Part shown: in pieces, positions 3,432 to 51,356 of the stretch
Position numbering within the stretch: the first letter of the stretch is position 1
How the letters are laid out: every line of letters begins with the position of its first letter
Program-made: the position numbers and the translations under genes
The notes under the pieces: generated by a model
The model's input: only the letters and a program-made list of their open reading frames with translations
What the model was told of the DNA's origin: nothing
Databases searched by the model: none
Virus record (IMG/VR): IMGVR_UViG_3300001202_000003
Location: 1-51,356 of that record
Direction: 5' to 3' (one strand)
Source of the DNA: a virus
DNA: 51,356 bases

Positions 3432-3456
3432 TAAAAAACCCCGCTGGGAAGCGAGG
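3432..3456 (-). terminator. Rho-independent terminator candidate after ORF 3508..4029
   Basis: On the minus strand: CCTCGCT-tccc-AGCGGGG followed by T6. One mismatch in the stem. Confidence 0.55.
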
Positions 3457-3507
3457 CTTGCTCTTAATTTACATGTTATAGCTTATCCTAACAAACTAAC
3501 AACAACC

Positions 3508-4029
3508 TTAACCCTTCCTTTCTTTAAACTCTTTGGCCATGAAACTTAAAATACGCATAGTTTCATCACCTAATTTAGTACCAACTCTAGTTTCTTTCCA
3601 GTGCTTACGTGCTTGTTTTACACTACTAAACACTCTACAACCAGCGTGAACACTACCACTTTTACTCATTACAAACTGATATCCGTCAGACCTAATCGGG
3701 CCTTGTATTAAAGCATTACTACATTTTCTTATCTTTAAACAACTACGGCAATCAATACAACTAGTACAACTATTACAATTGACACAACTACTACAACCAG
3801 TGCATTTAATACAACTGTGGCATTCACCACAACCCTTACAACTATGGCAATTAATACAATTAACACAGCCACGGCAACAAACTAAAGTTCTTAAAGCAGC
3901 TTTTGCACTCTTCCTACTACCGAAATAATGATAATAGCACTTATTACCATCAATATCTACGACATATTCTTCGTATTCTATAATATCACGATCACTCTTA
4001 TTCATAATCTTAGTCGTAATCTTATCCAT
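3508..4029 (-). CDS. Cys-repeat protein, 173 aa, with 16 Cys at exact Cxx periodicity plus a C-terminal GC(R)xF..xxAR.HW-type domain
   Basis: CRGCVNCINCHSCKGCGECHSCIKCTGCSSCVNCNSCTSCIDCRSC read from the translation. GGAGAA ribosome-binding site upstream of the ATG. Confidence 0.8.
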   Translation of the reverse strand: MDKITTKIMNKSDRDIIEYEEYVVDIDGNKCYYHYFGSRKSAKAALRTLVCCRGCVNCINCHSCKGCGECHSCIKCTGCSSCVNCNSCTSCIDCRSCLKIRKCSNALIQGPIRSDGYQFVMSKSGSVHAGCRVFSSVKQARKHWKETRVGTKLGDETMRILSFMAKEFKERKG

Positions 4030-5537: not shown

Positions 5538-7178
5538 ATGGCTAATATGAAATACGACTATTCTGGTAATTTGTACACCGAAAAAGACTATCGTAATAAT
5601 GATTTTCTTACAGAACAGTTTATTAAACAAGAGGGGACCGGTGTTGGTGCAAGAGATATTCCAAAAGATATCCATGATTTAAACACAGTTAATATCGATC
5701 GGATACAGTTAATACAAACGCTTAAGTATGATTTTGATAGTTTTATTAAATTAATATTACACGAAGAAGAAGGTATCGATTTGGGGGTGCCTCCTTTTCA
5801 TAAATATGGTTTTAAAAAGATGACTGATATTGATATTATCAACTTAGTTATTGCTTGGCCGCGAGACCACGCTAAAACGACATTATTGAAAATAGCTATA
5901 CTGTGGTTGTTTATATACACTCCCTTTAGGTTTGCTATGTATGTTTGTCATACTAATAAGAAAGCGGCTAACGCCCTAGCTGACTTAGTTAATATGATGA
6001 AAAAGGAAAGTGTCGTCGGGATTTATGGTGTGCCTAAAATCATTAAAGCACAAGCCAGTACCGGAAGCTACCTTATTGATTGGTGTGATAAGAGAATTAT
6101 ATTAGAAGCTGTTGGTGTTGGGCAAGATGTTCGTGGTACTAATATTGACAACCAACGGCCACAGATACTAGCACTTGATGATGTTGAAAAAGCAGAAGAA
6201 GGTGAAGAAAATAAGATGGGTTACGAAGGTATTAGTGACTGGTTCTTTGCCACTCTTCGTAAATGTGTTGATAGGCGTGGCCATGTTATAAGACAGATCG
6301 GTAATTTAGTAGCTGAAAAAAGTTTGCTTTATGATAATCTTACTAGTGATTATTGGGTTAGTACTAGGTTATCAGCTATTACTAAAGAAGGCAAACCTCT
6401 TTGGCCTGCTAGATGGACTTTAGCACAGTTAAAGCTTGATTTATTGGAATATATTGAAAAAGGTAAGATGGGTATTTGGATGTCCGAAATGCTCAACATG
6501 CCTTTGAACGAGAGTAATGCTATTATACGTAGTGGTGATTTACTAATACGTGATGAAGTTACGCCTGACAACCCTGACATACTGATGAAATGTATTACTG
6601 TTGACCCAGCTATTACTAAAAGTGCCACACACGCTGATAATGCAGTGGTATTTGTACACGTTTATTTAAACGGTGCTTGGCAAGTAGGTGAAATATTCTC
6701 TGCTAAAGGACAAAGTGTTTACGATTTGTATTATAAGATCATCGAGCTAGCTTCTAAATGGCGAATTACTCTGGTAGGTATTGAAACTGAGGGTTATCAA
6801 GAAGCGTTGAGGCAGGTGTGTGAGCAGAAGGCTATTGAAATGGGTATTAATACAATGCATTTCGTGCCTTTAAAAACTAATAAGAAGTCAAAAGCTAGTA
6901 GAATTATAGCTTGGGCTGGTATGTTGAAAGCTAAGAGCTATGCTTTAAGTTTTAATTACCTTTGGTTGTTTGAGAAACTAGTTAAATATAATCCTGATAC
7001 TAAGAATAATGATGATGATGAGCCTGATGCTGGTAGTTATATATTGCATATGATAGATTACTATGGGCACTTAATGGCAGGTATTGTTGATGATAGACAG
7101 GTAGCTGCTGACAAACGATATAAAGATGCTCATCGTGATGACTATAGGTATTCAGATCAATTATACGTTAGGAATTAA
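5538..7178 (+). CDS. terL: Terminase large subunit
   Basis: Deviant Walker A AWPRDHAKTTLL, Walker B ILALDDVE, and nuclease-domain motifs ITVDPA, GIETEGYQ and DDDEPDAGSY. Position is just before the portal gene. Confidence 0.9.
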   Translation: MANMKYDYSGNLYTEKDYRNNDFLTEQFIKQEGTGVGARDIPKDIHDLNTVNIDRIQLIQTLKYDFDSFIKLILHEEEGIDLGVPPFHKYGFKKMTDIDIINLVIAWPRDHAKTTLLKIAILWLFIYTPFRFAMYVCHTNKKAANALADLVNMMKKESVVGIYGVPKIIKAQASTGSYLIDWCDKRIILEAVGVGQDVRGTNIDNQRPQILALDDVEKAEEGEENKMGYEGISDWFFATLRKCVDRRGHVIRQIGNLVAEKSLLYDNLTSDYWVSTRLSAITKEGKPLWPARWTLAQLKLDLLEYIEKGKMGIWMSEMLNMPLNESNAIIRSGDLLIRDEVTPDNPDILMKCITVDPAITKSATHADNAVVFVHVYLNGAWQVGEIFSAKGQSVYDLYYKIIELASKWRITLVGIETEGYQEALRQVCEQKAIEMGINTMHFVPLKTNKKSKASRIIAWAGMLKAKSYALSFNYLWLFEKLVKYNPDTKNNDDDEPDAGSYILHMIDYYGHLMAGIVDDRQVAADKRYKDAHRDDYRYSDQLYVRN

Positions 7179-7180
7179 TT

Positions 7181-9283
7181 ATGGTTAAAAGAGCTAAACG
7201 TGTTAAAAGTGTTGGTAGTGAAAGATTAACTATCAGTGATAGATCATTAAGTAAGAAAAAACATGATGAATTATTAACTTGGTTGTTTGATCGTATTATG
7301 CCTGCTTATTGTGAGCACACGGACAGAGTTTATTTGTATGATTGTGTTACAGAGGGTTTAGCTGCTAAGTACGAGAACAAAGGTTTTGAGAAAGAGCGGG
7401 AGATAGCTTACGCAAAAGGTCAGACCTCTATTCAAAGTGATATTAAATACCCTAAAGTTTTGGGTAATGTTAATGATATCGCGGCCAATGTTATTAATAT
7501 TTTGTTTCCGGCCAGACAAATGTATGGTAGCGTTGAGACGAGTCCCACCAAACAAGATATTACTGCTGCATTTGTCAGCGAGATGAATAAAAACTCTCGT
7601 AAGTTTAAACATTTTACTAATATGACTAAATGTATTACTGACGCAATTGCTTATAATGTTGCTATCGTTGAGAATGATTATCTTGAGGTTAAGGGTTACA
7701 CTGGTAGTAAAACTCGTGAGCGAAGTAATTTAAGTGCTACTAATAATACACAGATTATTAAACGTGGTACTAGGTTGAAACATTTGGATATTTACAATAC
7801 GATATTGGATTGGTCAGCTGACATTGAGAATTATAGTACTGACGCTGAATTTTACGTAAAGGTTGAGCGAGTTACTGATAACGATCTACTGCGTAAGCAA
7901 GAACAAGGCGAGATACTCTTAGCTAATGATATATTAAATTTGCTTAGAAGGCCTAAAGTTAACGGTGGTAAGATTGAAACTTCCAGTAAAGGCAGTCCTT
8001 TTTATAACACAGGGCATTTTTCTACTACTGTGCTTGGTAACCGTGGGGGAAGCAGTTTTGCGGGCATGTATCATTATCGCTGTGATTTTAGATCGAGATA
8101 TAATCATATTAGAGAACACTACAGTCATGAGGATAATAATAAACCATTTGATCATATTAAAAGTATTTACGGTAGTGATGGTGAGCGCATAAAAGAAAAA
8201 CAAACGGCACTGAATGAACTAGTTACTATTACAATTAGAGCCAGTGAAGAAGATATTGGTTTAAGTTCAAAACAAGGGACAGCTCGTGATCAAAGCGATG
8301 GGAAGAATATTAGAAAAATATGGCGCATTGGTATTGTTAACGGTATACGTATCGTTAGTATTGATGAAATTGCTACAAACCACGGAATGTTACCTTGTTC
8401 AGTAACTGTCCCTAAGACTGAGCTTAGTGACACTTGTAGTTTAAGCTTAAGTGAACAGTTATTGCCGTTTCAGGAAGCTGATAGCTCATTAATGAATATT
8501 TTTATTAAGCAAGCTAGAAGTGATAAAAACAAAGGTTTAACTTTTTATGCTAAAGAGATAGTGGACTTAGATGAATGGGCGGACCCTACTACTGGACGTA
8601 TTGGTGTTAATTTAAAAAATAAGAGTGGTCCTGATGGTAAAAACTATCGTTTGCAAGATTTAGTGCATAATGTGCAAGGGCATCCTATTAATAGAAGTCT
8701 TATTGAAGGTATGGGTTTACTGGAGCAAAAATCTCAGGATATATTTCCAACACAGAGTGTTGATCAGCTAGCAAATTTAAATAGACCTGTGACACATCAA
8801 AGTAGGTCACTAACACAGTTGCAGAATTTACCAGTGTTCATTTTTGCGAGAACTATTCATGATGAGTTGTTAGAACCACAAAACTATATGCATGTTATGG
8901 ATATTATTAATAATAATGATACTATTAGCATGATGAATAGTGAGGGTAACGAAGAACAAGTCGACCCTACTACTTTAGATTTAGAAAGTGTTGACTTAGC
9001 CGTTAGTGATGGTTTACGCGGTATTGATACTATTGCAGTCATGGATAGATTAAATCAAATACTACAGTATGCTTTCCAATCACCGGAAGTATTAAGAGAG
9101 TACGATGTTATGCTCATAGCTGATTACTTGTTGAAGATGGAAGGTGCCAATATTGAGATGGAAGCGTTTAAGTTCCAAAATCCTTTTGATGCATTACCAC
9201 CGGAACAGAAAGAGTTAGCAGTTCAATTATTACAACAAGCAGCTGCCGAGCAAGGTAATGATGACGGTGGGGGTGAATTATAA
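7181..9283 (+). CDS. Portal protein
   Basis: 700 aa, directly downstream of terL with a 2-nt gap, and an acidic C-terminus. The call rests on position and size. Confidence 0.75.
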   Translation: MVKRAKRVKSVGSERLTISDRSLSKKKHDELLTWLFDRIMPAYCEHTDRVYLYDCVTEGLAAKYENKGFEKEREIAYAKGQTSIQSDIKYPKVLGNVNDIAANVINILFPARQMYGSVETSPTKQDITAAFVSEMNKNSRKFKHFTNMTKCITDAIAYNVAIVENDYLEVKGYTGSKTRERSNLSATNNTQIIKRGTRLKHLDIYNTILDWSADIENYSTDAEFYVKVERVTDNDLLRKQEQGEILLANDILNLLRRPKVNGGKIETSSKGSPFYNTGHFSTTVLGNRGGSSFAGMYHYRCDFRSRYNHIREHYSHEDNNKPFDHIKSIYGSDGERIKEKQTALNELVTITIRASEEDIGLSSKQGTARDQSDGKNIRKIWRIGIVNGIRIVSIDEIATNHGMLPCSVTVPKTELSDTCSLSLSEQLLPFQEADSSLMNIFIKQARSDKNKGLTFYAKEIVDLDEWADPTTGRIGVNLKNKSGPDGKNYRLQDLVHNVQGHPINRSLIEGMGLLEQKSQDIFPTQSVDQLANLNRPVTHQSRSLTQLQNLPVFIFARTIHDELLEPQNYMHVMDIINNNDTISMMNSEGNEEQVDPTTLDLESVDLAVSDGLRGIDTIAVMDRLNQILQYAFQSPEVLREYDVMLIADYLLKMEGANIEMEAFKFQNPFDALPPEQKELAVQLLQQAAAEQGNDDGGGEL

Positions 9284-9326: not shown

Positions 9327-9480
9327 AAAATTTTGGGCTGGATAAGTAAGGTGTTTACAAACGTATTTTATTGTTTCCTAGTGAACGTAAGTGAACGGCG
9401 TAGCCGTGATCGCAGCGTTAGCGTAAAACAATAAAACTTGGTTTGTCAATACTTTACGAAGGCTCCAGACCATTAAATTT
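9327..9480 (+). repeat. E1: GC-rich structured intergenic element, family copy 1 of 5 (sense to local transcription)
   Basis: Ends AAAATTTTGGGCTGGA ... AAGGCTCCAGACCATTAAATTT. Internal pairs are GTGTTTACAAAC/GTTTGTCAATAC and TTTTATTGTTT/AAACAATAAAA. Central hairpin ACGGC-gta-GCCGT is followed by GATCGCAGCGTTAGCGT. Confidence 0.85.
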
Positions 9481-9508
9481 TTGACACAACTAAAGAAAGG
9501 AAATAGTA

Positions 9509-11584: not shown

Positions 11585-11608
11585 TACATTTATTACAGCT
11601 TGTTGTGG

Positions 11609-11651
11609 AAGGGCGGTAGTGTTTCTTTAGTTGTGCGCTACCGCCCTTTTT
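11609..11651 (+). terminator. Rho-independent terminator after the capsid gene
   Basis: AAGGGCGGTAG-18 nt loop-CTACCGCCCTT followed by a T run. Confidence 0.8.
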
Positions 11652-22223: not shown

Positions 22224-22514
22224 ATGTCTGATAATAACGAAAAAGTAATTATACTTGAACGTGAAGTTGCTGAATTAAAAAAAACTGTGTGGAAAACACT
22301 AGATCGTTTACGAGAAATAGAAAAGATTGATGCTGTGCAAACACATGACATTAAAACTATGAAAACAACAATGCGCCAAGTTGATGATAAGTTGGATAAA
22401 GTTTTAATGTTTATCAATGAAACTCGCGGCGCTAAGAAATGGCTATTTGGCTTGTTAGTTCTTATAGGTTCTATTATAGCTATCATGGTTAATTATCAAA
22501 AAATGAAACTTTAA
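22224..22514 (+). CDS. Coiled-coil protein with a C-terminal membrane anchor, 96 aa
   Basis: C-terminal transmembrane helix KKWLFGLLVLIGSIIAIMV. Confidence 0.5.
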   Translation: MSDNNEKVIILEREVAELKKTVWKTLDRLREIEKIDAVQTHDIKTMKTTMRQVDDKLDKVLMFINETRGAKKWLFGLLVLIGSIIAIMVNYQKMKL

Positions 22515-22532
22515 TAAAATAAGGAATGAATA

Positions 22533-22997
22533 ATGAGTAGTAATTTTACAGGTGGTAATCCTATTAGTGGAGCTAATTACCACACAAAAAACGGCATAAC
22601 ACGTGACGTAAATAGATTTAATAACACAGCATACCCGCACGGTGCTATTGTATTTCTAATTTGTGAAGGCAATATGCGCGGAGCTATTCACGATGGTAAA
22701 ACATGTGGTGGTGTCGCGCACTTTCCTTTGTTTAGCCCTAGCACTGACTTTTCAGCATTGTATGACTTAATAGATAATGCTACTAATCTAGACGGCAATG
22801 CTTCAATGGCTCCTGACGCTCCTGCGCCGAATAATTCTGTTATTGAAGATTTAATAGCACGTATTGAAGCTCTCGAAGAAGAAACCGTTAATAACGATGG
22901 AGCTGGCGCTAACACCCCGCCACCACAAGACCCTGTTGTTGACGTAGGTACTGTTGACCCTTCCGGCCCAGCAAACTCACCACCACTAACAGAATAA
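22533..22997 (+). CDS. HDGKTCGGV-motif protein, paralog 2
   Basis: AIVFLICEGNMRGAIHDGKTCGGVAHF aligns with EIVADMCECRRD...YAHDGKTCGGVRIG of ORF 15200. Pro/Ala-rich tail. Confidence 0.65.
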   Translation: MSSNFTGGNPISGANYHTKNGITRDVNRFNNTAYPHGAIVFLICEGNMRGAIHDGKTCGGVAHFPLFSPSTDFSALYDLIDNATNLDGNASMAPDAPAPNNSVIEDLIARIEALEEETVNNDGAGANTPPPQDPVVDVGTVDPSGPANSPPLTE

Positions 22998-23000
22998 TTA

Positions 23001-23147
23001 TTTAATTGGAATGAATTAGTACTTGACACGGATTTTTTGGCTGACAACGTGACCGCTAGGGAACGGCTTGCCGTTACCGCAGGGGGAACCCCGATCAGCC
23101 AAAACACTTGGTGTCAAGTATTCTAATTCAAAGGTTCCAATTATAAT
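23001..23147 (+). repeat. E2: GC-rich structured intergenic element, copy 2 of 5 (sense); the most rod-like copy
   Basis: Nested inverted repeats AATTGGAA/TTCCAATT, TGAATTAG/CTAATTCA, TACTTGACAC/GTGTCAAGTA and TTTTGGCTGA/TCAGCCAAAA. They enclose hairpins AACGGC-tt-GCCGTT and GGGG-gaa-CCCC. Confidence 0.85.
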
Positions 23148-23167
23148 AATTATGAGAAAGCACAACT

Positions 23168-23707
23168 ATGAATAATAATGAACAACTAAATAATCAAAAT
23201 ATTAATACTGATATACCTCAAGCAACACCTAAGCAAGAATTTGAAAAAGATTATCTTAATCAACTTGAGATATTGACTTTCGAAAACAATAAAGAAGCTT
23301 TAGGTACTATTGCTTGGATTGCTCATTTTGACGAAAGATTTAAAGATCAACCTTTTAGTCTTGTTATGAATGATATTTATGGTTCAGTGATACATAATCA
23401 ATATGTAATAGCAGGTCAACCAATGGGTGATAAAGAAAATTTATTCCCTGTAGCCTTTATTACATGGGGTATGTTTAATACTCCTGTTGCTACAATACGA
23501 GCAAATAACATTAGACCTCTTTCACCTTTAGAGTATAAATCTGGTAATATTGGATTTTTTACTATGTTTAGTTCTCCTTATGAAGAACCTGATAAAATGA
23601 TTGAACTAATGCGGGCAAAAAGCTCAAAGTTACAAAGTCTTTCAAGCATTTCATTTGTTGACAGATTGTTTAAACCAGACTATACTTTTAGGAGTAGACA
23701 AAGTTAA
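23168..23707 (+). CDS. HlyC/CyaC-like protein (RTX toxin-activating lysine-acyltransferase family fold); catalytic residues possibly substituted
   Basis: The recalled family motifs match in order and with matching spacing. These are LGTIAW, a Pro 12 residues after that Trp, QY starting 16 residues after that Pro, PVAFITW, SGN ending 27 residues after that Trp, and xSPY. This comes from memory of HlyC and CyaC sequences, not from a search. Confidence 0.45.
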   Translation: MNNNEQLNNQNINTDIPQATPKQEFEKDYLNQLEILTFENNKEALGTIAWIAHFDERFKDQPFSLVMNDIYGSVIHNQYVIAGQPMGDKENLFPVAFITWGMFNTPVATIRANNIRPLSPLEYKSGNIGFFTMFSSPYEEPDKMIELMRAKSSKLQSLSSISFVDRLFKPDYTFRSRQS

Positions 23708-25245: not shown

Positions 25246-26535
25246 ATGTCTATTATTGAACCTACTAAAAATGTGCACCCGCCTGCTTTGGAAATAGAAA
25301 AAACTACTGAAAAAGTTACTATTTTACAACTACAAGGAAAAGCTACACGTAATGACCCTGTTCAAGGGCAATTAGTAAAAGCTATTAAAAAGTCCGCTGA
25401 AAGTGCTGGTAATATATCACGTATTGAAATCTTTAGTGGTGGTCAAGAAAGTGCAGCTGAAATTAACTCTTTAGGTGTCGGTGGGCGTGTAGGCAGTGAT
25501 AGACATGATCACGGTAACGCTGCTGACTTTAGAGTATTTGATCTTAATGGTAAACTACTAGCTCCTGCTAGTGAAAAAGCTATTCCAACATTATCATCAT
25601 TTGTTTCTAATATGAGAAAAAATGGTATCACAGGAATTGGTGCCGGTCGTGGTTATATGGGTGGTATGGCTATACATGCTGGCTACGGGTCTACTACTGT
25701 CTGGGGTGCTAATGGTAAATCTGCTAATGCACCTGCTTGGTTAAGACAATCATTTTATAGTGCTAACCCAAACACTAATAAAAATAATAGATTAATATCT
25801 GACCGTGACAGAGATTTAATGATACGTACTATTATTGGCGAAGCCGCTGGTGAAAGTTCAGAAGGACAAGCTGCTGTTGCTCATGTAATATTAAACAGAG
25901 CTAATAGCTCCAGACACGGTAATACTATTGAAGATGTTGTTTTAGCTCCGGCACAATTTAGCGCTTGGAATGCTGTTACAGGCGGCGCTGGTGGTAGCGG
26001 TGCTAATAACCTCGTACGTTCTCACGGTCCTGACAGCGATTTATATAAATCAGTAGGTAATATTGTTGACGGTGTTACTAAAGGTAGTATTAATGATCCT
26101 TCTGGTGGAGCTACGCATTATTTCTCACCTGCTGGAATGACAGGCCGTAGAGCTCCTGATTGGTGGACAGAAGAAAGTCAGCGTGGTGGTGGTGCTATTA
26201 AAATCGGTGGTCATATTTTTGCAGGTAATCCTGATCTTGTGGGTAAAAACCAAGCTACTTTTAATTTTGACACAGGTAATAATAATATTAGTCGTGGGGA
26301 AATAGCTGCTAGGGAACAACAGTACAACAGGGCTAATAATCGTGAAAATACTAGCATTAATAATAATTCACATTTAAACGCTGAAAATAATAGAGCTAAT
26401 TTTTTAAATTCTTTTTTACAAGCTCAAGCTGACCAAGCTATTAGGTTAGATAGCGGTGCTTCAATCATCCAAGATGCTTTCAGTCAGATATCACAACAAA
26501 CAAGTAACGCTTTAGAAACAGCAGAAGAAGTTTAG
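25246..26535 (+). CDS. Virion-associated two-domain peptidoglycan hydrolase (M15-type peptidase plus SleB-like Hydrolase_2)
   Basis: N-terminal half has GSDRHDHGNAADF ... AIHAGYG, the HxxxxxxD...H zinc motif of M15 peptidases. C-terminal half has MIRTIIGEAAGESSEGQAAVAHVILNRANS ... APAQFSAWN ... GATHYFSP, as in SleB-type hydrolases. Confidence 0.8.
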   Translation: MSIIEPTKNVHPPALEIEKTTEKVTILQLQGKATRNDPVQGQLVKAIKKSAESAGNISRIEIFSGGQESAAEINSLGVGGRVGSDRHDHGNAADFRVFDLNGKLLAPASEKAIPTLSSFVSNMRKNGITGIGAGRGYMGGMAIHAGYGSTTVWGANGKSANAPAWLRQSFYSANPNTNKNNRLISDRDRDLMIRTIIGEAAGESSEGQAAVAHVILNRANSSRHGNTIEDVVLAPAQFSAWNAVTGGAGGSGANNLVRSHGPDSDLYKSVGNIVDGVTKGSINDPSGGATHYFSPAGMTGRRAPDWWTEESQRGGGAIKIGGHIFAGNPDLVGKNQATFNFDTGNNNISRGEIAAREQQYNRANNRENTSINNNSHLNAENNRANFLNSFLQAQADQAIRLDSGASIIQDAFSQISQQTSNALETAEEV

Positions 26536-34872: not shown

Positions 34873-35388
34873 TTAGTTGTAATAATATTTAGTTATTTTC
34901 TTGATATAGTTTTTAGTTTCACCAGGTATTTTACCATACCAGCGTGTACCTTTTGTAATATAACCTGGACCTGCGTTGTAGCAAATTAATGTTTTATTAA
35001 AATCGTTTTTGGCTTTACGTTGGCAGTCAGCTAGTTCTTTAGTCCCTACGTTTGCACCAGTAGAACATTTATACAGTTGACTCGGTTTAGTAATACCCCA
35101 TTTAGCAGCAGTATCTGGCATTACTTGCATAATACCTCTTGCTCGTTTACCTGTGTAGTTCCTAGGTCCGGTCAGTTTACACCGGCCATCGCTTTCAGCT
35201 TTAGCTACTGCAAGCGCTAAGTTGATATCACTTACTTTATTTATCTTAGCGTATTTTATTACTTGCTCGTAGCCTTTGCCTTGATACTGTTTAGTGTTAA
35301 TTTGTTTCTTTTGTTTAAGTGTTAATGCAGAGCACGACGATAGTGCCAACGATGCAAGTAACGTTGTTACGATTAATATTTTACGCAT
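34873..35388 (-). CDS. Lytic transglycosylase (SLT domain) with a lipoprotein signal peptide
   Basis: Lipobox LALSSC in MRKILIVTTLLASLALSSCSA. SLT motifs AKAESDG (catalytic Glu-Ser), GIMQVMP and CYNAGPGY. Confidence 0.85.
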   Translation of the reverse strand: MRKILIVTTLLASLALSSCSALTLKQKKQINTKQYQGKGYEQVIKYAKINKVSDINLALAVAKAESDGRCKLTGPRNYTGKRARGIMQVMPDTAAKWGITKPSQLYKCSTGANVGTKELADCQRKAKNDFNKTLICYNAGPGYITKGTRWYGKIPGETKNYIKKITKYYYN

Positions 35389-35409: not shown

Positions 35410-35556
35410 AAAATTAGTGGTCGGAACCTTCTCATTCCGGGGTGTGACTTGTTCGTTTCAGTGCTTCGCTTCGCTGTGGCGATCTGGCGATCGCCTCTGG
35501 CTCACTATGGCACTTACACTAAGTCAACCCGCTCATTCATTCCGCCCAAATTTTAA
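35410..35556 (-). repeat. E3: GC-rich structured intergenic element, copy 3 of 5 (minus orientation, sense to the minus-strand operon)
   Basis: On the minus strand: AAAATTTGGGCGGAA ... GGTTGAC ... GGCGATC-gcca-GATCGCC-ACAGCGAAGCGAAGC ... AAGTCAC ... AAGGTTCCGACC. It fills the gap between ORFs 35566 and 35388. Confidence 0.85.
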
Positions 35557-41900: not shown

Positions 41901-41928
41901 GGTAGTACTTTCTTAAATGATTTAAGTT

Positions 41929-42038
41929 AGAGGCGGCTCCTAAATAGGGCGCCGCCTCTCATCCTGATTAATGAATAATGCCCTTTTTTATAGGGGGAGG
42001 CAAGGGCATTACCAGTAGGGGGTACAGTATTAATCAGG
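41929..42038 (-). other. Cluster of GC-rich stem-loops 3' of ORF 42030..42698; possible terminator or mRNA-stabilising structures
   Basis: AGAGGCGGC/GCCGCCTCT at 41929-41959. AATGCCCTT/AAGGGCATT at 41977-42010, nested inside CCTGATTAAT/ATTAATCAGG at 41963-42038. No clean T-run follows, so these are not canonical terminators. Confidence 0.4.
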
Positions 42039-47091: not shown

Positions 47092-47865
47092 TTAAGTACG
47101 ATATAACGCTCGAGTCGGGTATTTTAAATGATTTTTATTCTCTTGAATAAACGCAGGCACACTAAAACAAGGGCATGCTTTAGCTGCATATTGATTATGT
47201 CCTGATAGTTTATTAATATTAATGTTAAATTTCATTAAATTATTAATAAGCCAAAAAAACGTTTTGAATTGTTTTGCACTGTAATGCTCAGTAAAAGCAT
47301 CAGTTTCTGAACCACCAAAACCACCAGCGAGGGCTATACCTACAGTGCCTGTGTTTTTACCTTTTGTGTGTGCCCCAGTGTTATCTAAAGGCCTACATAC
47401 AGTAATTTGACCAAGTCTATTAATAAAGTAATGGTATCCTATATCTGACCAGCCGTTATCCCTTACGTGCCATTTTATTAGATCAGAATGCGCTTGATTA
47501 ATACCAATATCACCATTCCAACTACCTACTCTTGTTGCTGTTGTGTGGATAATTATTTCGTCAATGAAACGCGGTGTCTTAAAGAAATAACCAAGATCTT
47601 TGGTTTGTATCGTTAGTGTGCTGTTATAATTATCTAAAATAGCACGAGCGTAAACAGCAGGCTGCCATGCTTTTTCAACATGTATCTCAGGCACTTTTGC
47701 AGTAGCTTTAGCATTAATATATTTGTTCTTTTCAATCTTTTTGATAATACTTTCAGCAGCTTCGTCATCAATTAACGTGTCCACTTCGTCATTGTCAAAC
47801 AATTCGTCAAGGAATGACATTAACATTAAGAAAATATTACGAGAATTTTCAGATTGATTTGACAT
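47092..47865 (-). CDS. N-acetylmuramoyl-L-alanine amidase (Amidase_2/PGRP type), probable endolysin
   Basis: IIIHTTAT, GYHYFINRLGQ, GAHTKGKNTGTVGIALAGG and SGHNQYAAKACPCF. ATG at 47865 is preferred; the track start at 47904 is a TTG. Confidence 0.85.
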   Translation of the reverse strand: MSNQSENSRNIFLMLMSFLDELFDNDEVDTLIDDEAAESIIKKIEKNKYINAKATAKVPEIHVEKAWQPAVYARAILDNYNSTLTIQTKDLGYFFKTPRFIDEIIIHTTATRVGSWNGDIGINQAHSDLIKWHVRDNGWSDIGYHYFINRLGQITVCRPLDNTGAHTKGKNTGTVGIALAGGFGGSETDAFTEHYSAKQFKTFFWLINNLMKFNININKLSGHNQYAAKACPCFSVPAFIQENKNHLKYPTRALYRT

Positions 47866-47962
47866 TTTACTAATACCTTTTTCTGTGTTGTTACAATAAT
47901 ACAATATCTTAACTGATTTGTTAACTTACCCTAGCATAAGAGTTACTACTTGTCAATAGGGT

Positions 47963-48289: not shown

Positions 48290-48842
48290 AATTTGTAGCT
48301 TTCTTGCCTATAAATTGTTGCTAAATCTTGCATAATAGCACCTTGAACTTTATTATCATTAGCCATAGCAATGTGCCCTGATTTAATTTTTGTTTGGCAT
48401 ATTGAACCGATTGATTTACTGAGTTTTGGAAGTGTTTTATATGTTTTATTAAGTGCCTATTTTGATAAGCTAGCGTCATGTCTATGCCACAGAAGTAGTC
48501 TATAACATTGTTATAACCGATTTGAACAGGTGTTTTTGCTCTATAATTAATATATTTTAATCCATCACGAAAACCGTTACTGTGTCCTATTATTACGTTT
48601 AGGTAATTAACATTATTTAGAATATTAAAGCTTTCTGTGTTAAATGCTCTACCCATCCAAGACATATCATTTCCGTCAGATGAATAAATATTTACTATTG
48701 AATTTGGAAACTCTGTGGTAATACGTTTCTTTAATTTTTTGGCCCACCGTTGGAACATCCATGTACCTATGATAGGAATAGAAGAACCTAAGCCGCACAC
48801 TAGTGTTACATTTAATATTAATTCTTTTTTATTAACTGTCAT
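48286..48842 (-). CDS. Small lipase/esterase-like alpha/beta hydrolase, interrupted by a -1 frame break at an A5 run (48387-48391)
   Basis: Frame 0 (48321..48842) has the oxyanion-type LVCGLGSS and the nucleophile elbow IIGHSNG. The -1 frame downstream reads IKSGHIAMANDNKVQGAIMQDLATIYRQESYKL. That is a typical catalytic-His C-terminus (compare Bacillus LipA [21 protein letters not shown]). It ends in an ATGA overlap with the next gene. Confidence 0.6.
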
Positions 48843-48880
48843 TTTACATAATTCCTCATTTTATATTTAACGCGAAATAA

Positions 48881-49022
48881 TTATGGTCTGGAACCTTATT
48901 CGATAAGTTGACTCGTTCACTGCGGTGCTACGCTGACGCTGCGGTGAGGCTGACGCCTCACCTACGGCTCGCTTTTGGCACCTACGTGCGTCAACCAATC
49001 TCATATCCAGCCCAAATTTTTT
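48881..49022 (-). repeat. E4: GC-rich structured intergenic element, copy 4 of 5 (minus orientation, sense to the minus-strand operon)
   Basis: On the minus strand: AAAAAATTTGGGCTGGA ... GGTTGAC ... GGTGAGGC-gtca-GCCTCACC-GCAGCGTCAGCGTAGC ... GAGTCAAC ... AAGGTTCCAGACCATAA. Confidence 0.85.
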
Positions 49023-49065
49023 AGCTCTTATTAGTACATTTTTCAAAAATCATTACCTGATTGGT

Positions 49066-49216
49066 TAAATTTTTGGCCGGAAAAAGAATACGTGTTGACT
49101 AGTGAAAGCGATAAAACCGACACGCAGGGGAGGGCTTGCCCTCACCGTTAGCGTTAGCGTCAATCGCTGTAACGAATAAGTCAATACTATTCGCAAGGTT
49201 CCGGCTAATTAAATTT
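49066..49216 (+). repeat. E5: GC-rich structured intergenic element, copy 5 of 5 (plus orientation, antisense to local transcription; head-to-head with E4)
   Basis: TAAATTTTTGGCCGGAA ... GAATA ... GTTGAC ... AGCGAT ... GGGGAGGGC-tt-GCCCTCACC-GTTAGCGTTAGCGTC ... ATCGCT ... GTCAA ... TATTC ... AAGGTTCCGGCTAATTAAATTT. Confidence 0.85.
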
Positions 49217-49250
49217 AATGTTATTGTTTTAATTATTTCATTATTTCCAT

Positions 49251-49526
49251 TCACCAAGCTTGAGGGTGAGTTATTCCATACATTCTAGCCGTGTCTTTTT
49301 TTAAAAATGATTTAAAGTCTTTAATAGTTAATTCCACAAACATATCATCGTCGTAGCCTTTTGTTTTCCAACTAATATAATTGGCATAGACATTACAAAT
49401 AACAATATTAACAGGCATTTCATTTTTAATAAAGTCACGTAACTTTTTAGGCATTGCCATTAACTGCGTTTCCCAAGCATCATTCTCAGACACACTTTTT
49501 AATGTTGAGTTATTATTTTTTGACAT
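49251..49526 (-). CDS. Hypothetical protein, 91 aa
   Basis: ORF starting 2 nt after the helicase stop. Confidence 0.55.
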   Translation of the reverse strand: MSKNNNSTLKSVSENDAWETQLMAMPKKLRDFIKNEMPVNIVICNVYANYISWKTKGYDDDMFVELTIKDFKSFLKKDTARMYGITHPQAW

Positions 49527-49528
49527 AA

Positions 49529-51356
49529 CTACAAATCAATCCCTTTCATTTTATCCATGTCAAAACCACTAATATAACTATTAATCTTTTCATCCATAGT
49601 ACTACCTTTAATGCGCATATTATTAACACAACGTTTTAACGCATATTTAGTACATAACAACGTCACATTTTCAACACAACGCGTTACAGCCGTGTACAAC
49701 AATTCATTAAATAACATTTGTCCGTGACAATCATGTAAGCAGATGAACACATTTCTAAACCCACTACCTTGTGATTTGTGTATCGTTATCCAATAAGCTA
49801 ATGCTAAATTCTCAATCTGTGTACTAGTTTCGAATAAATGATGATGTGCTAAACCTCCTGCGTCATCTTCTTCTAAATAATCAAACTGTATCTCACAAAA
49901 GTGACTGGCTTTTCTAAGCCCAGTACCTTCATCAGTAACATCAGCGTCACCAATGACATTATTATCGCCTTTATATAACCCGCCGCCAAACATGGCATTA
50001 ACTTTATCCCGCTGCTTTTTAAGCTTCTGCTCTTTGCGACGTTCCTCTAACTCCTTACCTACATCAAATTCCAAGCCTTCAAATTCACCAGTTTTACCTT
50101 GCCCTGCACCTAGATTACTATTATTATAATGCTCGCCACTAATACCAGCATTAGCATTAATGCGGTCAATCCATCCAAGCATGCCATTATAAACACCTAT
50201 TTCATTATCATTTTTCAAATTAATAACACGATCACCAACGGCAAATTTTTGCTGATTACGCATTGTTTTGATTAACATTATGTCATTATCAGGATTAACT
50301 ATTTTTCTAGTCCTAACATTAAGCATTTCTTGACCTAACGTACCAACATTACTAGGCGTCAACAATATGTCTTGCTCAGGGTCATACCTACCTTCTGCAT
50401 ATGCTTTATTTATAAAATTCTCAACCTGTTGCGCTGCAATATTTTCATTCTTATCTATGCCTAATATTTTAAAATTGTCACTAACTTTAGGCATTTTACC
50501 ACTACGAATTAAGTTAGCATTACTAATAACATCACCTTCTTTTTGGCGGTATATTTGAGTTAATTCCACTGTAGGATATTTAGCTAATAATAAAGGATGT
50601 ATAGAACTGTCTAAAACAGGTTGTAATTGTGCGAGGTCACCTATTGTTATTATTCTGCAATCTTCTGGCAATGCATCTAGCAACATCTTCAACAACTTAA
50701 CACCTACCATCGATATTTCATCAATAATAACTAAATCAAAATCTAATTTAACCGCTTCTTGTTCTTTACGCGTCATACCGCTATCATACTCACTACAAGG
50801 GTAGCCCTCAGCGTTAATCCACACACCATTATGACAACGTGGCTCAAAGAATTTTTTATTCAAAGTCTTATAAGCCTGCTCTTTTTTATCGTAATGTTCT
50901 ATCTCACGACTTACAGGCCCAAAATTTATTATCTTATGAATAGTATTACAGTTAGCCTTAAACTCATTAGGCACAACTCTACGCAGTGTTTTAACTGCCA
51001 GTCCTGTAAACGCACCCATCGAGAAATTAAATGTGTGTGCTGTTAAATGTGAATGGTTACTAACGTGTTTGTTTTTCGAAATAGTACCGCTTTCAATTAA
51101 TTGCCTGACCATTTCCAAAACAGTAGTAGTTTTACCAGTACCCGCGTAGCCAATAATATTACAGCGTTTTTCTTGCAGTGCCATTGTAATAGCTGACTGT
51201 TGTTTCGCATTGAGTTTTATTTCTTCACGTGATTGCGGCTGCGTAGGTTCTTTATTGCCATTAATTTCATCACACAAAACTTCTAAAGCTTGCCTTTTTC
51301 CCGCAGGTAATTCATAGTTATCATTTAAGCCGTCTACTAAGTCATCTACTAAATTA
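49529..51356 (-). CDS. RecD/Dda-like SF1 DNA helicase; the 5' end wraps to 126..1
   Basis: Walker A IIGYAGTGKTTT, Walker B LVIIDEISMV, and C-terminal ITIHKSQGSGFRNVFI and LYTAVTRC motifs. The frame stays open to the window end. Confidence 0.9.
   Translation of the reverse strand, partial: NLVDDLVDGLNDNYELPAGKRQALEVLCDEINGNKEPTQPQSREEIKLNAKQQSAITMALQEKRCNIIGYAGTGKTTTVLEMVRQLIESGTISKNKHVSNHSHLTAHTFNFSMGAFTGLAVKTLRRVVPNEFKANCNTIHKIINFGPVSREIEHYDKKEQAYKTLNKKFFEPRCHNGVWINAEGYPCSEYDSGMTRKEQEAVKLDFDLVIIDEISMVGVKLLKMLLDALPEDCRIITIGDLAQLQPVLDSSIHPLLLAKYPTVELTQIYRQKEGDVISNANLIRSGKMPKVSDNFKILGIDKNENIAAQQVENFINKAYAEGRYDPEQDILLTPSNVGTLGQEMLNVRTRKIVNPDNDIMLIKTMRNQQKFAVGDRVINLKNDNEIGVYNGMLGWIDRINANAGISGEHYNNSNLGAGQGKTGEFEGLEFDVGKELEERRKEQKLKKQRDKVNAMFGGGLYKGDNNVIGDADVTDEGTGLRKASHFCEIQFDYLEEDDAGGLAHHHLFETSTQIENLALAYWITIHKSQGSGFRNVFICLHDCHGQMLFNELLYTAVTRCVENVTLLCTKYALKRCVNNMRIKGSTMDEKINSYISGFDMDKMKGIDL
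51308..51356. repeat. Terminal overlap, copy B (identical to 1-49)
   Basis: Same 49-mer as at 1-49. Confidence 0.95.

Follow-up and report, generated by a model that had tools for sequence, protein, structure and literature searches.

A large branched intergenic element conserved as a structure in a clade of uncultured phages

The viral genome IMGVR_UViG_3300001202_000003, analysed here over its whole length of 51,356 nucleotides (nt) and referred to as the window, carries ahead of a HlyC-like acyltransferase gene an intergenic element, E2 (22999..23150, plus strand), which folds into a long rod with a forked tip. E2 is one of about 25 copies detected with a covariance model in roughly eight related, uncultured metagenomic phages. 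The members of this family share one fold, covary in their helices, differ in stability between the two strands, occupy conserved positions in the genomes and lie in both orientations relative to the neighbouring genes. The family is previously undescribed, is restricted to this clade and has no match in Rfam. The explanation which we favour, with somewhat less than even confidence, is a strand-specific RNA module read by a protein, either as a processing or stability signal or as the source of a released small RNA.

The plus strand of E2 has a predicted minimum free energy (MFE; RNAfold) of -63.2 kcal/mol, compared to -32.7 +/- 3.8 for shuffled sequences (z = -8.0; 0 of 200 shuffles as stable), and the minus strand of -61.5 kcal/mol (z = -8.5). 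The rod of about 36 base pairs (bp), proposed in an earlier note drawn up from the letters of this DNA, is thus far beyond shuffles on each strand, and in a fold scan of the whole 51-kb genome E2 was the most stable segment of 150 nt. Pair probabilities along the rod range from 0.58 to 1.0. In the covariance-model search (cmsearch) the score of the element is 120.1 bits (E = 6e-24) on the plus strand and only 28.9 bits on the reverse strand, and the modelled element encloses the span 23001-23147 to which it had previously been assigned.

The four inverted-repeat pairs claimed for E2 are all present in the sequence. The outermost helix, P1, is formed by AATTGGAA (23004-23011) and TTCCAATT (23135-23142), and its inner GGA/UCC is near-invariant in the family. 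P2 is composed of an outer segment, TGAATTAG (23012-23019) with its partner CTAATTCA (23123-23130), and an inner segment, TACTTGACAC (23020-23029) with its partner GTGTCAAGTA (23111-23120); its complete 5' strand (TGAATTAG plus TACTTGACAC, 23012..23029) pairs with 23111-23130 and holds the near-invariant UUGAC (23023-23027), paired with GUCAA (23113-23117). P3 joins TTTTGGCTGA (23035-23044) to TCAGCCAAAA (23095-23104). On the 3' strand, between P2 and P1, is found an AAGG bulge (23131..23134), unpaired in the MFE fold and at least 90% conserved across copies, which is part of the motif AAGGTTCC at 23131-23138; this motif occurs four times in the window, where 0.77 occurrences are expected.

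The 5' strand of the three-way junction (23045..23059) is A-rich and carries the motifs UGAnC and CG(N)AGG in conserved columns. It leads into the apical hairpin P4, GGAACGG-CUUG-CCGUU.CC (23060..23078), in which 23060-23066 pair with 23071-23078 around a CUUG tetraloop with a probability of about 0.99. The hairpin previously drawn here, AACGGC-tt-GCCGTT, would need an impossible loop of two nucleotides. The conserved motif CCGCAG (23077..23082) joins P4 to P5, the hairpin GGGG-GAA-CCCC (23082..23092). While this second apical hairpin, also proposed before, is backed by covariation in the family (helix 6) and by that alone, it is outside the MFE fold of E2 itself, with a pair probability of 0.004, and adopting the consensus-like fold costs 5.6 kcal/mol in stability. 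The motifs singled out in the earlier note, GGAA, TTGAC, CCGCAG, GTCAA and AAGGTTCC, proved to be the most conserved columns of the family.

The other copies in the window were first located by motif searches and by a scan for stable folds, and a covariance-model search with the filters off returned exactly five copies, with none further above noise. E1 (9330..9478, plus strand, 103 bits) is sense and lies between the portal and scaffold genes, E3 (35411..35552, minus strand, 67 bits) is sense and lies between a gene for an 89 amino acid (aa) protein and the SLT gene, E4 (48878..49018, minus strand, 98.6 bits) is also sense, and E5 (49070..49214, plus strand, 108.2 bits) is antisense to its flanking minus-strand genes. 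E4 and E5 form a divergent pair with a 51-nt AT-rich spacer between them; the own strand of E5 folds at -53.3 kcal/mol and its reverse complement at -45.3. Pairwise identity among the five copies is 45-59%. E2 had been called the most divergent of them, and it does have the lowest mean identity, 48% against 51-55% for the others, but the margin is small and by model score it is E3 (67 bits against 120 for E2) which is the atypical copy, E2 belonging to the subtype commonest in the relatives. The rods of several copies, for example E3, are heavily interrupted.

The copies share one plan. P1 has 8-10 bp with the inner GGA/UCC and is followed by an asymmetric P1/P2 loop, in which the near-invariant AAGG is unpaired on the 3' side. 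P2 contains UUGAC (or UUUAC) paired to GUCAA and is followed by a conserved GUA/CUUG internal loop, beyond which P3, of 5-11 bp, varies in length and sequence. The three-way junction has its A-rich strand with the motifs UGAnC and CG(U/A)AGG, and the apex consists of P4, CCGCAGG, the P5 hairpin and then GA. The loop of P4 is a C-G(U/C)A-G triloop in 17 of 25 copies and the CUUG tetraloop in E2 and E5. An irregular extension of the rod takes the place of P5 in E1, E4, E5 and a few relatives.

Covariation was computed on a model-based alignment of 26 distinct sequences, which was fitted to a structure supplied by us and so favours that structure somewhat. Standard pairs are found in 83.6% of its cells compared to 62.5% in shuffles, with 0 of 500 shuffles reaching the observed value, and when the partner columns are slid by 1-3 positions the paired cells fall to 34-42%. 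Both sides have changed in 37 of the 47 pairs, and such changes are seen in 253 cells where 89 would be expected. By helix, the pairs with changes on both sides are 7 of 10 in P1 (helix 1), 12 of 17 in P2 (helix 2), 8 of 8 in P3 (helix 4) and 7 of 8 in P4 (helix 5). As an independent check, RNAalifold, run on the five window copies aligned simply with MAFFT, gave 16 compensatory pairs. Aligning E2 with the copies at the same site in three relatives (L123, L126 and L130) showed 15 pairs kept through changes on both sides; in P1 at this site TTGGAA/TTCCAA, ATGGAA/TTCCAT and ACGGAA/TTCCGT replace one another. Across the family the sequence of P1 varies (GGGCTGGA, AATTGGAA, GGCCGGAA and others) and only its pairing is kept. 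The earlier suggestion that the architecture is retained in spite of sequence divergence, which argued for selection on structure, is thus borne out by covariation in about 25 copies and by the positional orthologues of E2.

The relatives are about a dozen metagenomic contigs (numbers with the prefix L) found through homologues of the portal protein, a 742-aa protein and the DNA polymerase. All of them carry copies except the most distant, L129, with no copy within the 15.6 kb available, and two IMG/VR loci carry copies as well. Orthologues of E1 are present after the portal gene, at the same site, in L119, L120 and L121, and the site of E2 ahead of the HlyC-like gene is occupied in L123, L126, L130 and L107; these sites have been retained among phages with portal-protein identities of 47-62%. 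No match was obtained by blastn of the E2 region or of E2 itself against 50,697 phage records, nothing was found in IMG/VR with the HlyC-like or the portal protein, and the HlyC-like alignment found nothing in the JGI metagenomes. Pattern scans of IMG/VR, GTDB and the JGI metagenomes gave hundreds of chance matches, which model filtering reduced to the two true IMG/VR loci, L104, whose gene order matches that of L127, and L107, which contributes a new orthologue of E2. The model-filtered scans of IMG/VR, of 185,579 species genomes and of the JGI metagenomes showed no member outside this phage group, and no copy was present in any bacterial genome locus tested. The three copies of L125 (2446-2594, 2855-3003 and 15833-15983) are mutually closest, with 63-69% identity, above their identity to same-site copies elsewhere, which points to duplication or gene conversion inside this one genome.

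The copies all fill gaps between genes, beginning just after a stop codon and ending 15-50 nt ahead of a start codon. With respect to the flanking genes, 17 of the approximately 25 copies are sense, including every copy in the late structural operon, and eight are antisense, all of these in the early/replication block. Across the family G-U outnumber A-C cells by 55 to 25 (binomial p = 0.001), and in the antisense copies, read on the strand of the element, by 18 to 2. Compared with its reverse complement, the strand of the element folds more stably in 19 of 22 copies, with a mean advantage of 8.3 kcal/mol, and with DNA parameters the own strand is the more stable in 21 of 22. In the antisense copies the own strand has a mean advantage of 9 kcal/mol over the mRNA-sense strand, a margin equal to that of the sense copies. 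The absence of G-U drift on the mRNA strand speaks against the antisense copies being maintained as hairpins in the mRNA of their neighbours, and the retention of the own-strand fold means that the fold is read on the strand of the element regardless of gene direction. The asymmetry of G-U over A-C, together with the large branched apex, also speaks against the cruciform reading that the earlier note had allowed for the rod of E2.

Opposed pairs are common. Divergent ones surround one to four small genes of unknown function in L125 (2446/2855 and 15833/17291), L128 (48/933) and L276 (16063/17632), while L123 13867/14037 is a convergent pair. A rule linking orientation to the direction of replication fits the window and the ERZ6864144 phage and fails in the SRR17148704 phage, where the order is -,+,-,+, and was therefore rejected. 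The GC skew of the window tracks the direction of transcription only.

A number of known RNA families and signals were considered. At gathering thresholds Rfam 15, with Y RNA, pRNA, 6S, SRP and the self-cleaving ribozymes among its families, returned no match, and of the six weak matches obtained up to E = 5 none overlapped any of the five elements; no tRNA or tmRNA was found in the window. Y RNA was rejected for the wrong polarity of the UUGAC helix and the lack of an Rfam match, the hammerhead because its core motifs are absent and the k-turn because the GA dinucleotides are not conserved. Sigma-70 promoter scans around E2 and E4/E5 stayed at background level, and the aligned flanks of the copies have no shared -35/-10 motif and no consistent T-run. 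An Frpo-type single-stranded DNA promoter or a sigma-70 promoter was dismissed since TTGAC(A)/TTTACA does resemble a -35 box but no TAnnnT follows 16-18 nt downstream in E1-E5 or L119. N4-type hairpin promoters have a stem of 5-7 bp and a loop of 3 nt and are recognised by a virion RNA polymerase which the phage encodes. P4 is a short hairpin whose loop has 3 nt in 17 of 25 copies; the scanned ORFs revealed no RNA polymerase, and the 1729-aa virion protein has no Pfam or PDB match by sequence.

As for termination, the canonical terminators of this genome are short GC hairpins followed by a T-run (11600-11650, 2768-2789 and 3436-3459), located behind the gene for the major capsid protein and within the early regulatory region. 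A terminator scan returned no terminator-like site at 22500-23700 or 48700-49400, and a T-run follows only a minority of the copies, with T7 runs after those of L126 and L130. The element was not taken for an ordinary intrinsic terminator, most copies having no T-run and a canonical terminator being placed right upstream of the E2 orthologue of L107. This L107 hairpin with its T-run (GATAGCTATCC...GGGTAGCTAT-TTTTG, at approximately 6160-6200 on the minus strand) abuts the 5' end of the element, and its position raises the question of how the element and the downstream genes are transcribed there.

Under the RNA module which we favour, the sense copies, E2 included, would be transcribed within polycistronic phage mRNAs, the rod and its forked tip would fold autonomously, and a protein would recognise the folded module through its conserved bulge, internal loops and junction. 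The module would then act at the boundaries of gene modules as an intergenic processing or stability signal. A cut at the rod or within it, made for instance by host RNase III, could separate the upstream from the downstream message and possibly release a stable small RNA of about 145 nt, and expression of the antisense copies would proceed from the other strand. RNA as the active molecule, recognition of the fold by a protein and processing or release as the outcome are all inferred. Virulent Pseudomonas phages produce abundant RNAs of 120-210 nt which are processed from untranslated regions and have no start site of their own, and their long-read transcriptomes also contain antisense RNAs with defined starts (PMC10914365).

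Several points weigh against this explanation. Single-stranded DNA is a possible alternative to RNA as the active form. Since the copies share ancestry, the counts do not represent independent events. In the sense copies G-U exceeds A-C only weakly (37 against 23, p = 0.09). About one third of the copies are antisense and no shared promoter lies upstream of them, and no U-tract or conserved end signal marks a discrete RNA. C-GNA-G triloops are very stable in DNA too. Finally, no RNase III, RNA-binding protein or other partner was recognised in the scanned phage open reading frames (ORFs), a negative result which is weak because most of these ORFs returned no family match.

The protein scans of the window covered ORFs outside the structural ones between 9509 and 18798. 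In the window ORFs, and in the cassette genes of the relatives, no RNase III, primase, transposase, RNA polymerase or homing endonuclease was found, and no HUH (RAYT) enzyme was found in the scanned window ORFs with Pfam, PHROGs and NCBIfam. PDB sequence searches with the 1729-aa and DUF3987 proteins were empty.

A different arrangement, which we regard as possible and less probable than the protein-read mRNA module, is that the elements are not mRNA punctuation and are autonomous modules of about 145 nt, in the form of RNA that is transcribed or cut out from both strands or of a single-stranded DNA hairpin, whose conserved junction and bulges would be read by a dedicated phage or host protein. 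They could possibly serve as a decoy or scaffold RNA produced from five loci, or as a priming or recombination signal which marks the borders of exchangeable cassettes.

The main rival is a signal in single-stranded DNA, in which a hairpin on a strand exposed by replication or recombination would recruit a primase, helicase or nuclease in the manner of the ssi or G4-type priming signals of plasmids and phages; on balance we consider it unlikely. It would account for an orientation independent of gene direction combined with a strand-specific fold, and the own-strand advantage under DNA parameters (21 of 22 copies) agrees with it. Phage origins contain C-GNA-G triloops, which are hyperstable as DNA, the scanned ORFs of the genome revealed no primase, and E4 and E5 lie on opposite strands around their 51-nt AT-rich spacer. 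However, the -,+,-,+ order in the SRR17148704 phage breaks any single-origin pattern, synthesis primed from the mostly divergent pairs (four of five) would converge and not spread, and the CUUG tetraloops of E2 and E5 are typical of RNA. To our knowledge such signals have not been seen before scattered over the genome of a tailed double-stranded DNA phage.

It is a little less probable again that E2 is no more than a T7-type RNase III processing site, its rod being the dsRNA substrate in the operon transcript and its cleavage uncoupling the genes on the fibre side from those for the HlyC-like and ejection proteins. Sites of this type call for a hairpin with at least about 20 bp of dsRNA, between genes of a sense polycistronic transcript. 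About ten intergenic RNase III hairpins, related to one another, are present in T7, the rod of E2 is near perfect and, at about 36 bp, long enough, and E2 and all copies of the late operon are sense and placed between gene modules. Within the RNA module favoured above, cleavage of the rod by RNase III would be a reasonable step, but alone it would explain neither the asymmetric features nor the antisense copies, and the RNase III reading of the earlier note is only partly supported. RNase III does not require the conserved AAGG bulge, the GUA/CUUG internal loop, the three-way junction or the C-GUA-G loop, and several copies, such as E3, have heavily interrupted rods. With about one third of the copies antisense (eight of approximately 25) and their own-strand fold nevertheless kept (G-U 18 against A-C 2), the role of a simple RNase III site in mRNA does not account for the family.

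We consider it improbable that the element is a selfish or semi-mobile repeat, comparable to miniature inverted-repeat transposable elements (MITE) or to ERIC and REP, which spreads from one intergenic site or cassette border to another and does little for the phage. Both orientations occur and only intergenic sites are used, divergent pairs flank small variable gene cassettes (two pairs in L125, one each in L128 and L276), copies of one genome can be mutually closest (L125), and copy positions differ between the more distant relatives. On the other hand, the P1 termini are kept in pairing and not in sequence, no transposase or HUH enzyme was found in the scanned ORFs, each genome has only five copies at 45-59% identity, and the E1 and E2 sites are retained among phages as divergent as their portal proteins indicate. 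A packed 51-kb phage genome rarely keeps useless DNA, and no shared flanking duplication is visible around the aligned copies. A classical MITE was rejected on the grounds of ends conserved in pairing only, five copies at about 50% identity and no transposase in the scanned ORFs. A semi-mobile repeat at cassette borders could coexist with an RNA function.

Least probable of all is that a regulatory protein of the phage binds the element as a duplex DNA site or cruciform, or that the element is an intrinsic terminator of unusual length. Proteins could make contact at TTGAC/GTCAA and at the repeated CG(T/C)AG motifs, and T7 runs do follow the L126 and L130 copies, but the compensatory changes and the one-strand bias of G-U over A-C, which a duplex site or cruciform would not yield, indicate selection on pairing in one strand and not on duplex sequence, the large branched centre disfavours extrusion, and the T-run is absent after most copies with the terminator scan empty at E2 and E4/E5.

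E2 lies in a gap of 170 nt (22998-23167), not of 147 nt as described before, and the element itself occupies about 147-152 nt of it. Upstream is a gene for a 154-aa protein (22533..22997, plus strand) without a family match, whose stop codon is 3 nt ahead of E2. Downstream, with its start codon about 20 nt past the end of E2, is the HlyC-like acyltransferase gene (23168..23707, plus strand), a label given in the earlier note and confirmed by PF02794 (E = 4.9e-8; 33.4 bits, cutoff 25). The companion label of a fibre block found no support, the four ORFs upstream of E2 being without any Pfam or PHROG match. The HlyC-like acyltransferase gene, of the RTX-toxin type, heads a putative block of ejection proteins and is conserved; its neighbourhood is kept in L123, L126, L130 and L107, and homologues 61-68% identical to the window protein are encoded in L123 (1511-2041), L126 (6581-7075) and L130 (6497-6991). 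Its conservation there suggests that a virion or ejection protein may be acylated. A minus-strand ORF of 139 aa with a GTG start (22688-23107) overlaps E2 and the end of the upstream gene, and is most likely spurious because E2 is conserved as a structure.

Directly past the elements, a stretch ACACAACTAA(A)GGAA is found just before start codons in the window (9479-9508), L119 (12333-12364), L120 (approximately 7650-7676) and L107. The genes concerned are the scaffold gene and, in L107, the HlyC-like gene, and the stretch may be a translation-initiation context. Its core heptamer ACACAAC occurs near gene starts 15 times genome-wide where 8.7 are expected, an enrichment which is not significant.

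Bases 1-49 of the window are an exact 49-bp repeat of 51308-51356, from which the window is taken to be the whole genome of a phage, about 51.3 kb long and closed into a circle (or terminally redundant). It has 36% GC, and its capsid protein shares only about 24% identity with the corresponding protein of the Pseudomonas phage 119X/PaP2 group.

Other features of the genome include four to five tandem units of 10 bp (TTAAACACAA) at 1847-1910, in a non-coding region of 790 bp between divergent genes, with a related copy of these units at 5679-5712. The units look like iterons and the region could be an origin or operator. At 3707-3885 a 9-bp periodic repeat (ACAAC-TAn-nnC) extends over about 180 bp within the minus-strand ORF 3508-4029, and its period implies a repeated three-residue motif in the protein, the sole match of which is a PHROG of unknown function. 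A second composite structure (41925-42035, -54 kcal/mol) lies in the gap between two minus-strand genes; it has an outer inverted repeat, CCTGATTAAT/ATTAATCAGG, around a GC-rich hairpin, AATGCCCTT/AAGGGCATT, with a second GC-rich hairpin, GAGGCGGC/GCCGCCTC, just upstream of the outer repeat, and by the covariance-model search it is not a member of the E family. Three cell-wall-degrading domains are encoded: an SLT transglycosylase (34873-35388, minus strand) and an Amidase_2 domain (47092-47904, minus strand), both in the early/replication strand block, and a Hydrolase_2 domain (25246-26535, plus strand) within a 429-aa protein of the virion block.

The element is a clade-restricted variant of structured intergenic repeats, in which selection on the own strand in both orientations is unusual. 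The RNase III hairpins of T7 (R0.3 to R18.5) are similar in being related intergenic rods with internal loops, located in long transcripts and present as paralogues in one genome; the elements described here are two to three times longer, have a conserved three-way junction and asymmetric loops and are antisense in one third of the cases. The bacterial repeats ERIC/IRU, REP/BIME and Correia are likewise imperfect palindromes of about 100-150 bp, exclusively intergenic, found in either orientation and sometimes in opposed pairs, with a proposed effect on mRNA stability as RNA hairpins. They have a conserved sequence including the ends and tens to hundreds of copies, and some have target duplications or a dedicated enzyme, whereas here five copies at about 50% identity have ends conserved in pairing only, occupy orthologous sites and are phage-borne.

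Among phage elements, the PeSL cassettes of T4-type phages also place a repeated intergenic stem-loop motif at the borders of variable small-gene cassettes (PMC2839356, PMC4122927). PeSLs are short composites of an early promoter and a terminator, conserved in sequence (PMC2839356, PMC4122927), while the present elements have no conserved promoter or T-run in the aligned flanks, are far larger and keep their structure by covariation. The small RNAs of Pseudomonas phages resemble them in size and origin, being stable intergenic RNAs of about 90-210 nt, cut out of longer transcripts and conserved within the genus, but they are single loci for which no multi-copy family or shared fold is reported (PMC10914365). 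No sequence or Rfam relationship between these small RNAs and the elements was found. The phi29 pRNA comes close in architecture, with a long helix formed by its ends, a three-way junction, two short arms and a length of about 120-170 nt. It is, in distinction to the elements, a single-copy RNA which works with a phi29-type packaging ATPase; here there are five divergent copies, no Rfam match and an ordinary large terminase (Terminase_6C in the L119 orthologue).

Structured intergenic repeats as such are already known from the RNase III sites of T7, the PeSLs of T4-type phages and the REP/ERIC sequences of bacteria. What stands out is a large, branched, covariation-supported element which matches no described RNA family. 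If the RNA explanation is true, it would represent a new class of phage RNA with a protein partner; if the single-stranded DNA explanation is true, it would be a signal for replication or recombination of a kind that is new for tailed phages. With a length of about 150 nt the element is a synthesisable target for probing, cleavage and pull-down in an otherwise uncharacterised phage lineage.

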